Shown: piece by piece, positions 3,897-55,617 of the stretch
Position numbering within the stretch: position 1 is the stretch's first letter
Layout: each line of letters starts with the position of its first letter
Source: a virus
DNA length: 64,000 nucleotides
Virus record (IMG/VR): IMGVR_UViG_3300009082_000017
Span: 32,001-96,000 of that record
Strand: one strand, 5' to 3'
The notes under the pieces: generated by a model
What the model saw: only the letters and a program-made list of their open reading frames with translations
The model's database searches: none
What the model was told of the DNA's origin: nothing
Program-made: the position numbers and the translations under genes

Positions 3897-3969
3897 AGCC
3901 GATGAAAAGTTTCGAACTCTCCACATATCCCCTACAAAGGGATCGCTCTACCAACTGAGCTACACCAGC
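3897..3969 (-). tRNA. tRNA-Thr(UGU)
   Basis: Cloverleaf: GCTGGTG/CATCGGC acceptor, GCTC/GAGC D arm, ATCCC-TTTGTAG-GGGAT anticodon arm, TTCGAAA T loop; no encoded CCA. Confidence 0.85.
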
Positions 3970-6033: not shown

Positions 6034-6107
6034 TAGCGCAAGCGCGATTTGAACGCGCAACCTCAGACTCCCAAAGTCTGACTTCTGCCAAATTGAATTA
6101 CTGCGCT
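6034..6107 (-). tRNA. tRNA-Pro(UGG)
   Basis: AGCGCAG/TTGCGCT acceptor, CAGAC-TTTGGGA-GTCTG anticodon arm, GCGCG-TTCAAAT-CGCGC T arm. Confidence 0.8.
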
Positions 6108-31902: not shown

Positions 31903-32280
31903 ATGAATAAAGAATATCACTTGGTCTTATATGCAAAAGGCTGGTATCAAAAATCAGATAATAAAATCAATGACCTAAAGGTTATTTGTGGCAATATTGC
32001 AAGTTATGATGCGGAATATGTATCAGAAAAAGATATTGTTTATTGGTTGCAGGATTGCACAAAAACATGGTTTGCTAAAAATCCTCAACGTTTTTATGAT
32101 CTTATTGAATCATGGAGAAAAGGCGAAAACATTATTGACTCATTCCTTTCATTCATTAGAATTATGCCTGTTGATGCCTTTGAATTTGAAATTGGTAATC
32201 CTGATGAAAATATTCTACCATTACATAAGCACACAATGATTGATTCTAATATGAAAGTCGTTGAACAAAAATCAGTTTAA
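31903..32280 (+). CDS. Hypothetical protein
   Basis: SD AAGGAG. Confidence 0.7.
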   Translation: MNKEYHLVLYAKGWYQKSDNKINDLKVICGNIASYDAEYVSEKDIVYWLQDCTKTWFAKNPQRFYDLIESWRKGENIIDSFLSFIRIMPVDAFEFEIGNPDENILPLHKHTMIDSNMKVVEQKSV

Positions 32281-35717: not shown

Positions 35718-35933
35718 ATGGAACTAAAAATTAACGCTGATAGATGGAATAATCGTGATATGGAAAGCGTAACTGGAATTTATATTCGTGCTATGACCCC
35801 TGACGGAAAATGGGATAACGCCGATCTTGCTCAACTTGATAGGGATTCTATTATTGAGTGGACTAAAACCAGAGAAAATGGCGCATTGAACACTTTACTA
35901 ATTTTGCTCGGATACGATCAAGTAACAAACTAA
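35718..35933 (+). CDS. Hypothetical protein
   Basis: SD AAGGAG; bounded by sites 35676 and 35937. Confidence 0.7.
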   Translation: MELKINADRWNNRDMESVTGIYIRAMTPDGKWDNADLAQLDRDSIIEWTKTRENGALNTLLILLGYDQVTN

Positions 35934-37036: not shown

Positions 37037-37192
37037 ATGACAACTTATACAGTTTCGTTTGTAAAAGATGCTTATGTAACAGTAGAAGCAGATAGTGTGG
37101 AAGAGGCGGAAGAATTGGCAACGAAAGAAGTCAATGATCGTGGAGTTGATTGTGAAAGTAAATGGCAATTAGATGAAGTTATTGATGAGTAA
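37037..37192 (+). CDS. Small acidic protein
   Basis: VEADSVEEAEELA motif; bounded by sites 36993 and 37198. Confidence 0.65.
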   Translation: MTTYTVSFVKDAYVTVEADSVEEAEELATKEVNDRGVDCESKWQLDEVIDE

Positions 37193-37219
37193 CACTCAAT
37201 AAAATTTATATTTCATGGT

Positions 37220-37324
37220 GAAGTAAACCCAAACATCTATTATAAATAGATCAGGGTCTAGAGATTGCGATTTACAATCAGTTTGAATAAATTCAAACAA
37301 AGGAGTGAAATTGCTCCAATAAAT
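37220..37324 (+). ncRNA. Orphan omegaRNA-like scaffold, paralogous to the tnpB 3' end
   Basis: Three blocks align with 38493-38607, with compensatory base-pair changes in two hairpins. Confidence 0.6.
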
Positions 37325-37363
37325 TATATCATTCATGGGAAAAATAAAAAGAAAGGAGGTCAA

Positions 37364-38575
37364 TTGATTGTTAATCGCATTGAAAAACATTGCATTAAAA
37401 GGAACACTCCATTATGGAAAGTTATAGATCAAAAATGTTGGGAAGCCAAAAGTTTATATAATTGTGCTAATTATATTATCACACAAGAATTTAAATCTAC
37501 TGGAAAGTGGATTAGATATTATAGTCTTGACAATATGATGCAAAGTACTTTACAATACAAACGATTAGGTTCTCAGGCTGCGCAGAACACATTGGTTTTA
37601 CTTGATAGAGACTGGCGTTCATTTTTTAAAGGAATCAAACAATGGTCTAAAAAGAAAGGAGAAGGATTTTTTGGTAAACCAGAAATGCCTTTCTATAAAA
37701 AGAAAAATGGTAGAAGTGTTTTAATGATAAAAAATATTCAATGTAGAATAGAAGGGAATAAACTTATTTTTTCTTGGCTACCATTAAGAAAATTTAGTGG
37801 TATTCCCACAAAAGCAACAGGAAAATTAATGCAAGTGCGTTTTGTTCCAAAAGGATCATGTTATTATATGGAGATAGTTTATCAAATAAACATTCCTGAC
37901 CAAAAGAAATTTAATAATCGCATTGCAGGAATAGATTTAGGCGTTAATAATTTTGCCACTATTGTAAACAATATCGGTCTTAGACCAATTTTTGTTAAGG
38001 GTAATATTATTAAATCTATGAATCAGTATTATAATAAAGAACGTGCTGAAATATCTAGATCAACTGGAATGGTCTGGAATAATAGAATGAGGAGATTAAC
38101 AGATAAACATTTGAAAAAATTAGATACTTACACCCATACAGTTAGCAAAAGAATTATAGAATATTGTTTAGAAAATAATATAGATACACTTATTGTTGGG
38201 CTTACTAAAGAATGGAAGGATGGAATTAATCTAGGACACGTTAATAATCAAAATTTTGTATGTATTCCTTATGATAAATTTATTCTTCAGTTACAATATA
38301 AATGTGAAAACATTGGAATAAGATTTATTATGAATGAAGAAAACTTTACATCTGGTACAAGTTTTCTTGATAATGAATTACCTATTGAGGAAAACTATAA
38401 TATTAAGCGTAGGATTAAAAGAGGTTTATTTAAATCTAACAATGGCGCAGTTATTAATTCCGATGTTAATGGTGCATATCAAATTGTTAAGAAAGTATAC
38501 CCAAACGCTTTTACAGAAATGTTTAGCAGAGGGATTAGAGGGTGTGATTTACACCCAATTAAGCTAGTAATCTAG
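37364..38575 (+). CDS. tnpB: TnpB RNA-guided endonuclease (IS200/IS605-IS607 superfamily), no tnpA nearby
   Basis: N-terminal AKSLYNCANY, RuvC-I GIDLGVNN, LIVG (G at the usual RuvC-II E) with downstream EENFTS, RuvC-III INSDVNGAYQI. SD AAAGGAGG before TTG 37364 or ATT 37367. Confidence 0.9.
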   Translation: MIVNRIEKHCIKRNTPLWKVIDQKCWEAKSLYNCANYIITQEFKSTGKWIRYYSLDNMMQSTLQYKRLGSQAAQNTLVLLDRDWRSFFKGIKQWSKKKGEGFFGKPEMPFYKKKNGRSVLMIKNIQCRIEGNKLIFSWLPLRKFSGIPTKATGKLMQVRFVPKGSCYYMEIVYQINIPDQKKFNNRIAGIDLGVNNFATIVNNIGLRPIFVKGNIIKSMNQYYNKERAEISRSTGMVWNNRMRRLTDKHLKKLDTYTHTVSKRIIEYCLENNIDTLIVGLTKEWKDGINLGHVNNQNFVCIPYDKFILQLQYKCENIGIRFIMNEENFTSGTSFLDNELPIEENYNIKRRIKRGLFKSNNGAVINSDVNGAYQIVKKVYPNAFTEMFSRGIRGCDLHPIKLVI

Positions 38576-38607
38576 ATAATAAAGAAGTGATTTTTTGCTT
38601 CGTAAAT
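38493..38607 (+). ncRNA. Predicted omegaRNA scaffold overlapping the tnpB 3' end
   Basis: Usual position for TnpB omegaRNA; hairpins GGGTGT/ACACCC, CTAG/CTAG, GAAG/CTTC. The 5' limit given is only the start of the homology block. Confidence 0.55.
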
Positions 38608-38664
38608 TCTTCGTTTTATGAAAAATAATAAAAAGGAAATAATTATGAAAGCTATATTAACCTT

Positions 38665-39072
38665 ATGAATGACCTTACAAGATATGTAAACATAAACGAT
38701 ACCTATATCCATTGCGCCAAATACCTATCCCCACAAACAACCCTGGTATGGTTATGTTTGAATACCTATTGGTTCAATAAGAAGGATAAGGGTGAACGCA
38801 TCAATGATTATGTCAAACCGTCTATAAACAGCATTGTAGCCGGTACTGGGCTATCTAAAAACACTATCAGGAAGTGTATCAAAGAATTAAATATATTAGG
38901 GTTTATCTCTAAAATTGAAAAAATATATGATAAAGAGACTGGAATGAATAGATCAAATCTTTATTATATGGACGAAAACCCTGAAAACCTTATTGAAAAC
39001 ATGGTAAAATTGAAGGAATTTAGAAGTGTAAAACGGTCAAAAGATACAATAAGTGAGGATGGATTTGACTAA
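38665..39072 (+). CDS. Winged-HTH protein (HTH_36/replication-initiator-like N-terminus)
   Basis: PSINSIVAGTGLSKNTIRKCIKELNILGFI...NRSNLYY. Confidence 0.75.
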   Translation: MNDLTRYVNINDTYIHCAKYLSPQTTLVWLCLNTYWFNKKDKGERINDYVKPSINSIVAGTGLSKNTIRKCIKELNILGFISKIEKIYDKETGMNRSNLYYMDENPENLIENMVKLKEFRSVKRSKDTISEDGFD

Positions 39073-39082
39073 AAAATCTTGT

Positions 39083-39142
39083 CTAAACTCACTATTTGAC
39101 CCACCTAGTTCAAATAGTGAGTTTAGGTAGTTCAAATAGTGA
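39083..39142. repeat. 17-bp inverted repeat plus 15-bp direct repeat (iteron-like)
   Basis: CTAAACTCACTATTTGA/TCAAATAGTGAGTTTAG; TAGTTCAAATAGTGA at 39106 and 39128. Confidence 0.75.
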
Positions 39143-43334: not shown

Positions 43335-43410
43335 GCCCTTGTAGCTCAGTTGGATTAAGAGCAATTCTCTTCTAAAGAATAGGTCGCGTGTTCGAGCCAC
43401 GCCAAGGGCG
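43335..43410 (+). tRNA. tRNA-Arg(UCU)
   Basis: GCCCTTG/CAAGGGC acceptor, ATTCT-CTTCTAA-AGAAT anticodon arm, GCGTG-TTCGAGC-CACGC T arm. Confidence 0.9.
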
Positions 43411-54796: not shown

Positions 54797-55582
54797 TTGA
54801 AACTATATTATAAAGACGAATATTGCACTTTACTTCAAGGTGATTGTCTTGAAGGCATGCAGAAAATGGCAGAAAAGGGTTTGAAATTTGATGCAATCAT
54901 AACAGACCTTCCCTATGGAACTACTGCTTGTAAATGGGATACAATTATTCCTTTTGATAAAATGTGGGAATGTTTGAATAATTTAAGAAAAGATAATTCA
55001 CCAATTATTTTGTTTGGAAGCGAGCCATTTAGTAGCTTGTTGAGATGTAGTAATCTGAAGGAATTCAAGTATGATTGGATTTGGAGGAAAAATACAGGGA
55101 CAGGGTTTGCAACGGCAAAATATCAACCATTAAAATATCATGAAATTATATCAATATTTTCAATTGGCAAAATAAAATATAACCCCATCCCAACTGAAAG
55201 ATTTAGCGAAGCAAGTAAAAGGGTATGTAAAAATCCAGTAAGAGGTGGCGGGAAAACAACAAGCAACCATGTTCCAATGAATATTGTGAAAGTCCAATAT
55301 GATAGCGAAACAAAAACGCCAGAAAGCGTTTTAGAATTTAAAAGTGTTCCTAATGCTGGAGGAAATAAATTGCATCCAACGCAGAAACCAATTGAACTAT
55401 TAGAGTATCTTATAAAAACATATACAAATGAAGGTGATATAATTTTAGATTTTACTTGTGGATCTGGAACTACTTTATTAGCAAGTAAAAAATTAAATCG
55501 TAAATGTTATGGTGTTGAATTAGAAAAGAAATATTGTGAAGTTACCAAAAATAGATTAATTGAGTTAGATAATACCCCATGA
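54797..55582 (+). CDS. DNA N6-adenine/N4-cytosine methyltransferase (beta class)
   Basis: GDCLE, TDLPYG, HPTQKP, LDFTCGSGTT; bounded by sites 54756 and 55578. Confidence 0.9.
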   Translation: MKLYYKDEYCTLLQGDCLEGMQKMAEKGLKFDAIITDLPYGTTACKWDTIIPFDKMWECLNNLRKDNSPIILFGSEPFSSLLRCSNLKEFKYDWIWRKNTGTGFATAKYQPLKYHEIISIFSIGKIKYNPIPTERFSEASKRVCKNPVRGGGKTTSNHVPMNIVKVQYDSETKTPESVLEFKSVPNAGGNKLHPTQKPIELLEYLIKTYTNEGDIILDFTCGSGTTLLASKKLNRKCYGVELEKKYCEVTKNRLIELDNTP

Positions 55583-55617
55583 AACTGTTGTTTCATTGAA
55601 AATTTAAAGGAGAGAAA

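Follow-up and report, generated by a model that had tools for sequence, protein, structure and literature searches.

The usual account of TnpB is that it helps to prevent the loss of IS605 and IS607 transposons, two types of insertion sequence (IS). To our knowledge, all characterised TnpBs take their guide from the sequence just 3′ of the omegaRNA scaffold. The TnpBs of ISDra2 and of tnpB-only, IS1341-type IS200/IS605 elements are homing nucleases that act on the element-free allele (PMC8612924; 10.1101/2023.03.14.532601). In the case of ISFba1 TnpB, cleavage was abolished by any single change in the target-adjacent motif (TAM; PMC11061315), and non-restorative homing between co-infecting phages is an already published concept (PMC13565253). 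Here we describe tnpB1, a solo tnpB gene with its omegaRNA scaffold, located in 64,000 nt of viral DNA that correspond to positions 32001–96000 of the 160,042-bp IMG/VR virus record IMGVR_UViG_3300009082_000017 (G+C 32%). This whole stretch is called the window, and coordinates refer to it; tnpB1, the scaffolds and their sites lie on the plus strand.

The best explanation for tnpB1 and its omegaRNA is a transposase-less derivative of the IS607 lineage that now constitutes one exchangeable gene module of a phage family. The region had no match among GenBank phages by megablast. An independent run, SRR5468431, contains the same 6.4 kb at 100% identity, including an identical copy of tnpB1 (L147).

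The omegaRNA scaffold and the junction palindrome

The tnpB1 scaffold (scaffold B, 38492–38607) spans the last 28 codons of the gene and 32 nt past the stop codon, and was recognized by the clade-scaffold profile with E = 3.7e-23. Its last hairpin, GAAG..CTTC (38584–38601), is followed immediately by a terminal hexamer, GTAAAT (38602–38607), which stands in place of the left arm of a palindromic site with the core TCTTCG (38608–38613) and a degenerate right arm, TTTTATG (38614–38620). Core, right arm and flank make up the predicted 20-nt guide of tnpB1 (38608–38627). Upstream of the gene lies scaffold A (37221–37324), a gene-less, omegaRNA-like scaffold of 104 nt with four helices, detected with the clade scaffold alignment by nhmmer (E = 6.5e-10). 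It ends in a hairpin, GGAG..CTCC (37302–37317), and AATAAAT (37318–37324), after which come the core TATATC and right arm ATTCATGGG (37325–37339); these form the 5′ end of the tnpB1 module and, by analogy with the clade profile, the predicted start of a guide for scaffold A. On its left, scaffold A is bounded by a canonical palindrome, CTCAATAAAA TTTATA TTTCATGGT (37196–37219), just past the stop codon of the upstream gene (37190–37192). A paralogue, tnpB2, which is 64% identical to tnpB1 and located just past the window end, closes with GGGAT..ATCCC ATAAAT TGATAC TTTTATGAGG.

An initial annotation, made from the letters alone, had described the hairpin of scaffold B as running into the left arm, and the upstream scaffold as ending in the same way, with the two copies diverging past TAAAT. 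We found both descriptions to be accurate: the similarity between scaffolds A and B is lost directly past TAAAT, and tnpB2 is organized alike.

A profile search found three scaffold copies in the genome, exactly A, B and the scaffold of tnpB2, designated C. By RNAfold, the three share a four-helix layout with differing stem sequences (z = −3.1 for A), and compensatory changes distinguish the copies (GATTG/CAATC versus GGGTG/CACCC). In a scaffold alignment of 26 loci, in which the core was conserved throughout, the GGGTG/CACCC helix occurred with GC, GU, AU and UA variants. RNAalifold applied to the MAFFT alignment returned one helix only, with the variable hairpins misaligned, and single-sequence folds were used instead. 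The last hairpin together with the hexamer was considered as a candidate guide and ruled out, being self-complementary and having a stem conserved among near-identical copies.

The palindrome is not peculiar to tnpB. The genome contains 101 sites of the form AT[GA]AA-N-N6-N-TT[CT]AT, compared to about 7 expected from shuffles. Their consensus, CCCCATGAAA-N6-TTTCATGGGG, is located at gene junctions, for example at 35932, 40024, 45288, 51503, 55573 and 63311. The stop codon of the upstream gene (TGA or TAA) is often contained in the left arm, and the ribosome-binding site (RBS) comes after the right arm. Relative to the syntenic loci L085 and L084, and also among L110–L141, the limits of homology blocks coincide with palindromes, and we therefore consider these sites to be general module junctions. 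The cores are conserved at orthologous junctions in the L085/L084 comparison. At the left bound of scaffold A, a 28-nt site with the core TTTATA is 96% identical to L084:4167–4194, with unrelated genes on either side, so that the site has outlasted the replacement of both flanks.

More than 490 IMG/VR contigs encode relatives of TnpB1. Of these, 62 non-redundant loci were lined up on the last base of the terminal hexamer; where more than one hexamer qualified, as in a few loci, the one past the last hairpin was picked by eye. Positions −6 to −1 read A-T-R-R-A-W, falling into the classes ATGAAT, ATAAAT and ATAGAA. Position +1 is never A, and +2 to +5 carry zero bits of information. The sequence TTT then occupies +7 to +9 in 57–60 of the 62 loci, while only 5–9% of other ATRRAW hexamers are followed by N6 and TTT. 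C or T is found at +10, A at +11 (50/62) and T at +12 (44/62). A hairpin of at least −3 kcal/mol ends 0–2 nt ahead of the hexamer in 50 of the loci, with stem sequences that are unrelated to each other. The fusion between scaffold and palindrome is thus far above chance, and we found no published description of it in the literature. The initial annotation had suggested looking for the motif at the ends of homologous phage tnpB genes, and all 62 clade loci carry it there. Its proposal that T for A at the end of the arm prevents self-cleavage fared less well as a general rule: the scaffold ends in this genome do carry T, but the ATAGAA class does not, and about 12 other sites in the genome, without TnpB, also have T at the last arm position on one strand.

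One subclade also carries a CRISPR-like (clustered regularly interspaced short palindromic repeats) mini array immediately upstream of the tnpB start, consisting of two to three direct repeats of 36–38 nt (GTTTTAGAGCTATGTAATTTTAATTAGTAATAAACC, type II-A-like) with spacers of about 29–30 nt. It was seen at L029:2314–2482 and in L028, L030, L031, L038, L061, L067, L075 and L076, and the 3′ scaffold of TnpB is retained in these loci.

TnpB1 and its IS607 ancestry

The tnpB1 gene (37364–38575) is an intact open reading frame (ORF) of 403 codons, with a TTG start at 37364, preceded by the RBS AAAGGAGG, and a TAG stop at 38573–38575. The protein matches the Pfam families OrfB_IS605 (PF01385, 1.2e-16) and Cas12f1-like_TNB (PF07282, 6.1e-7), both above the curated cut-offs, and a profile search of PDB matched TnpB and Cas12f structures. 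Across 50 aligned homologues, D191 (RuvC-I), E326 and D367 (RuvC-III) never vary. The position of the canonical RuvC-II Glu is occupied by a nearly invariant Gly (G279), and in the PDB profile search the canonical Glu of the Cas12f and TnpB structures aligned to a Gly/Lys stretch of TnpB1. E326 provides an alternative Glu in a downstream EENFTS motif, three residues ahead of the YTS motif. Judging from the alignment, the RuvC triad of TnpB1 is complete as D191/E326/D367. The C4 zinc finger expected between RuvC-II and RuvC-III is absent, with no Cys at 326–367 (clade consensus YTSGTSFLDNELP...); loss of the finger has been reported for some branches (PMC10691335).

The Gly at RuvC-II and the downstream Glu of EENFTS had both been pointed out in the initial annotation, and the pattern agrees with that described in PMC10691335. 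By its residues, compared against the published description, TnpB1 is a member of the Gly-for-Glu, RIIr-5-like rearranged clade. The rearranged active site itself is thus an already known feature, and Fanzors show a similar rearrangement (PMC13565253).

As the initial annotation had noted, no tnpA accompanies the gene. Neither Y1_Tnp (PF01797), for which the controls matched, nor Resolvase (PF00239) had any match in the whole 160-kb record. A subterminal hairpin is present at the right end only; on the left, tnpB is preceded by no more than a site, an RBS or both. The IS607 right-end extension, made up of a terminal hairpin and ATAACCT with a CC/GG core, is absent from tnpB1, tnpB2 and the closer phage relatives. 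It is present in L047, L062, L151, L160 and L165–166, and L062 and L165 include a serine recombinase. The more distant relatives, with 38–50% identity and from Bacillaceae, Clostridia and some viral contigs, are IS607 elements in complete form, in which a MerR-resolvase TnpA overlaps tnpB. Their right end consists of GATRAAT, a long hairpin and ATAACCT(A), past which identical copies diverge.

By this comparison, TnpA and both the left end and the right-end extension have been lost in the phage branch, where GATRAAT now abuts the core of the palindrome. Ordinary IS ends in homologues, which the initial annotation had named as evidence against its view, do occur in the distant relatives, as IS607 elements with a serine recombinase, and are missing from the closer phage relatives. 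Its suggestion that the palindromic site stands in for the IS ends is borne out by the lack of IS605 and IS607 ends and by the left-arm-like hexamer in the three genome copies and the 62 clade loci. The TnpB of a Staphylococcus Twort-like phage (35% identical) was left unused as a comparison; its 3′ architecture differs.

tnpB-free alleles, proposed homing and module exchange

Loci with closely related tnpB genes differ in what follows the hexamer. L054, L059, L063 and L080 are about 92% identical at the nucleotide level through tnpB and continue into four unrelated cores and flanks, with TTTYA in all four flanks. L089 and L093, both closely related to tnpB1, likewise change core and flank past the hexamer. 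On the left, the module has no sharp edge: the sequences of L054, L059, L063 and L080 become similar only from the RBS onward, and L004, L087, L088 and L100 have no palindrome upstream of tnpB. The claim that tnpB fills one site-bounded module consequently holds for tnpB1 and fails for these four loci, and the left edge near the RBS is imprecise.

Searching with the gene that follows tnpB in L063 recovered 32 loci. L111, L113 and L139 share the upstream gene U and the downstream gene D of L063 (92–99% identity) and lack the intervening 1.8 kb, which contain a small gene X and tnpB. The empty junction in these loci reads ..AGTTAAAA/CGGCAG-TTTCATGG.. (TTAAAA), and the filled junction of L063 reads ..CGATAGAA/CGGCAG-TTTCATGG.. 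(ATAGAA). In L112 (..CCTGAAA/) and L116 (..GATAAAA/), other upstream modules are joined to the identical core, arm and gene. Therefore, natural perfect matches of 30+ nt to the predicted L063 guide exist, placed after TRAAA as opposed to TAGAA in the carrier. As far as the sequences go, the L063 alleles fit a TRAAA-like TAM and a self junction that would not be cleavable.

For tnpB1 itself, two short tnpB-free contigs, L148 and L149, encode a downstream protein identical to that of tnpB1 (135 aa), in a gene that is 95.7% identical from the ATG on. Their layout is CCATGAAA/TCTTCG/TTTCATTGG, followed by an RBS, a 66-aa ORF and the gene; in an exact-protein look-up, the 66-aa ORF of L148 was found only in L148 and L149. 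The left arm is canonical, and the core is the TCTTCG of tnpB1, for which we estimated a chance probability of about 1e-3. The search for empty alleles suggested in the initial annotation was thus productive for L063, for which L111, L112, L113, L116 and L139 carry an intact target, and yielded only the diverged L148 and L149 for tnpB1.

One other candidate pair was set aside. The TnpB-terminal site of L085 (5218–5245; ATGGAT CTGTTG TTTTATGG) shares its core with a site in the window at 55567–55596 (CCCCATGAAA CTGTTG TTTCATTG). We did not accept this pair (L085 and 55573) as alleles, given differing flanks in which 14 of 20 guide positions match; the shared core may reflect chance or an ancient relationship. 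For L005, the gene on its downstream side retrieved only relatives of 46–52%, which were uninformative.

On balance, we favour a reading in which tnpB1 and its omegaRNA form a transposase-less module whose guide consists of the neighbour's core, right arm and flank, whose TAM is the canonical left arm, and which works as a homing or exclusion nuclease. By analogy with characterised TnpBs, the omegaRNA would read through the junction, so that the guide of tnpB1 would comprise the core and right arm and then run into the next module (TCTTCGTTTTATGAAAAATA), and the TAM would be the canonical left arm, about TRAAA. The predicted targets of tnpB1 are then TRAAA followed by TCTTCGTTTTATG.... The terminal hexamer of the element, being one to two bases off the canonical arm, would spare the carrier; a one-base difference could suffice, because the ISFba1 enzyme tolerates no single TAM change (PMC11061315). 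During mixed infection, relatives with this downstream module and without tnpB would be cut by the ribonucleoprotein, and tnpB would then be copied in from the carrier genome through recombinational repair; alternatively, the rival allele might simply be excluded. Recombination in the short conserved arms would carry the module to a new junction, where its guide would be re-programmed automatically, and the gene-less scaffold A would supply the same nuclease with a second guide.

Several observations weigh against this reading. For tnpB1, the guide and the point where the omegaRNA stops are predicted from near-identical relatives and the clade profile, and we infer the TAM, cleavage and homing from analogy with other TnpBs. 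Three near-identical pairs of loci (L010/L013, L016/L022 and L032/L041) share the core and split only past the right arm, and two others (L032/L044 and L040/L066) have already split ahead of the last hairpin. The left-arm/core boundary also joins modules without TnpB (L112, L116 and L137), and for this reason divergence at the boundary is by itself no proof of a boundary between scaffold and guide; its sharpness could reflect a general shuffling mechanism rather than the start of a guide. When exact 18-mers of the predicted guides were searched against IMG/VR, tnpB1 gave four chance matches, in giant-virus contigs, tnpB2 gave none, and no empty allele was found. L148 and L149 represent the sole tnpB-free allele found for tnpB1 and match its guide at 9 contiguous positions and 12/20 overall; because of this low match, we hold them as a diverged candidate target and not as proof.

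The palindrome itself also appears to be under selection. Hexamer position −4 and right-arm position +10 covary (A–T 24, G–C 15, A–C 10, G–T 3; Fisher p = 3e-4, uncorrected for phylogeny), which keeps the dyad symmetry and therefore indicates selection on the palindrome. The TTTTAT arm of tnpB1 and tnpB2, an A–T dyad, is outside the genome's usual TTTCAT and occurs at none of the other sites listed. The covariation would fit an element whose end gives the following gene a functional site again. It also means that the guide can drift from its ancestral targets.

The main rival, which we consider unlikely, is that tnpB is a passenger cassette, shuffled at the palindromes by another mechanism such as recombination in the arms or the action of a site-specific recombinase, for instance the Xer-like enzyme of the phage. 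The nuclease would add little or nothing to the spread of the cassette and might serve phage competition or be neutral, and the scaffold would abut the left arm for no other reason than that all modules end at it. The TnpB-free modules that join at this boundary agree with such a history, as do the homology blocks that start and stop at sites relative to L085, the conservation of the L084/37196 site between differing flanks, and the imprecise left boundary of the tnpB module. It accounts poorly for what is particular to tnpB. Stop codons in or near the arm mark the ends of other genes; a hairpin (50/62) and a modified hexamer fused to the core are found with tnpB alone, in 62 of 62 clade loci from many phage groups. 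The catalytic residues are invariant, the gene-less scaffold is maintained with compensatory changes, and a guide that reads the neighbour's unique core is just what a homing nuclease needs.

It is considerably less probable that the terminal palindrome acts as a signal for the 3′ end, processing or stability of the omegaRNA, or as a promoter or regulatory site of the next gene, with the guide elsewhere or absent and TnpB in a regulatory role. The covariation of hexamer and right arm, by which dyad symmetry is kept, would suit such a function, and the last hairpin is swapped between copies that are otherwise 94–98% identical. Against it, and in contrast to nuclease-dead TldR-type derivatives, TnpB keeps an invariant catalytic triad; the RNA hairpin of the terminal site is predicted to be weak in both tnpB1 and tnpB2, no U-tract terminator is predicted at the terminal site, and characterised TnpBs all draw their guide from just 3′ of the scaffold. 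Least probable of all is an ordinary IS607- or IS605-type IS whose mobility depends in trans on a transposase encoded by the host or some other element, and which is merely tolerated at palindromes: distant clade members are indeed complete IS607 elements and a terminal hairpin with a short motif looks like a transposase-recognised end, but the genome has no transposase, the right-end extension and any defined left end are absent, and an enzyme reading only the 5′ target would leave unexplained the TTTYAT at +7 to +12 in about 92% of flanks, compared to 5–9% of ATRRAW hexamers.

A wider form of the homing reading can be put forward tentatively, as a possibility that we do not count on: that a large clade of phage TnpBs gave up transposition and became an RNA-guided homing nuclease specialised for junction palindromes. 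In that case, the left arm would be the TAM and the unique 6-nt core the guide seed, the arm-like end would both restore the palindrome and block self-cleavage, and each recombination at a junction would re-programme the guide. Such nucleases, with solo guide-RNA cassettes supplying extra guides, would actively drive module exchange between phages that co-infect a cell.

What stands apart from these readings is a whole phage-borne branch of TnpB without transposase or transposon ends, a precise and conserved fusion of its scaffold to a repeated junction motif, and natural tnpB-free target alleles. If the proposed guide and TAM are correct, the system would be a natural case of non-restorative, RNA-guided homing between viruses. 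It would link the role of TnpBs lacking TnpA to module exchange at fixed points in mosaic phage genomes, and would point to compact nucleases with an A/T-rich TAM.

Downstream of tnpB1, the gene for the 135-aa protein (38665–39072) gave weak helix-turn-helix and RepA-N-like winged-helix matches, and a 44-nt inverted repeat follows at 39083–39126. Between the terminal site and this gene is a seven-codon ORF remnant (ATGAAAGCTATATTAACC..., 38646–38669, plus strand), which resembles the start of the gene downstream of a 75%-identical tnpB in L087; the 66-aa ORF of L148 and L149 occupies the equivalent position. Among IMG/VR sequences, the downstream gene had no relatives and an upstream gene had one, in the mosaic relative L084. 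Neither the upstream 60-aa product nor that of the gene following tnpB2 had a match in exact-protein look-ups. Immediately ahead of tnpB2, a gene (L002:1143–1462; G000 about 97040–97360, past the window end) has HNH-endonuclease-like motifs (C..C, DH, N, H) by eye, which would place a protein-guided nuclease beside an RNA-guided one. Rfam detected only tRNAs at the gathering threshold, three of them in the window (3897–3969, 6034–6107 and 43335–43410); at E ≤ 10 there were just chance matches, with no RAGATH-18 or other omegaRNA family.

Comparison with known systems

In its protein, TnpB1 is closest to the RIIr-5/Ser-5 clade of TnpBs (Altae-Tran et al., PNAS 2023, PMC10691335), with which it shares the change from Glu to Gly at RuvC-II and the compensating downstream Glu. 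It differs in lacking the C4 zinc finger, and the fusion of the right end to a phage palindrome is unmentioned in the published description of that clade. The IS607 relatives, such as L062 and L166, have a homologous TnpB (about 43–50% identity), the same scaffold core including ...GGGTG..CACCC..., and GATRAAT near the 3′ end of the RNA. What sets them apart are a TnpA of the MerR-resolvase type, a left end and an additional stretch of about 50 nt at the right end, between GATRAAT and the flank, all of which the tnpB1 element lacks. ISFba1, whose IS607 TnpB has been characterised (PMC11061315), is different in having the canonical Glu (E290), a RAGATH-18 RNA and the TAM AGGAG.

ISDra2 and the tnpB-only IS1341-type elements resemble tnpB1 in that the scaffold overlaps the 3′ end of tnpB and the guide is taken from the flank, as we infer here. 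They differ from it in that the tnpB1 genome has no Y1 TnpA, the element has no left-end hairpin and the active site is rearranged; moreover, the mobility of tnpB1 is apparently due to recombination between phages and not to peel-and-paste transposition. PATE-like or solo omegaRNA cassettes (Meers et al. 2023) also feature a gene-less scaffold near tnpB and a possible second guide, whereas scaffold A is without transposon ends and is bounded by junction palindromes like the other modules.

In its way of life, tnpB1 may resemble the free-standing homing endonucleases SegF, SegB and Mob of T-even phages (PMC13565253). These, too, are nuclease genes placed between conserved modules with no discrete left boundary, and tnpB1 would similarly cut co-infecting relatives that lack it and spread with its neighbours by repair. 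The difference is that its targeting would rely on an RNA guide and a TAM instead of a protein, and that its target would be a repeated palindrome in which the unique 6-nt core gives specificity.

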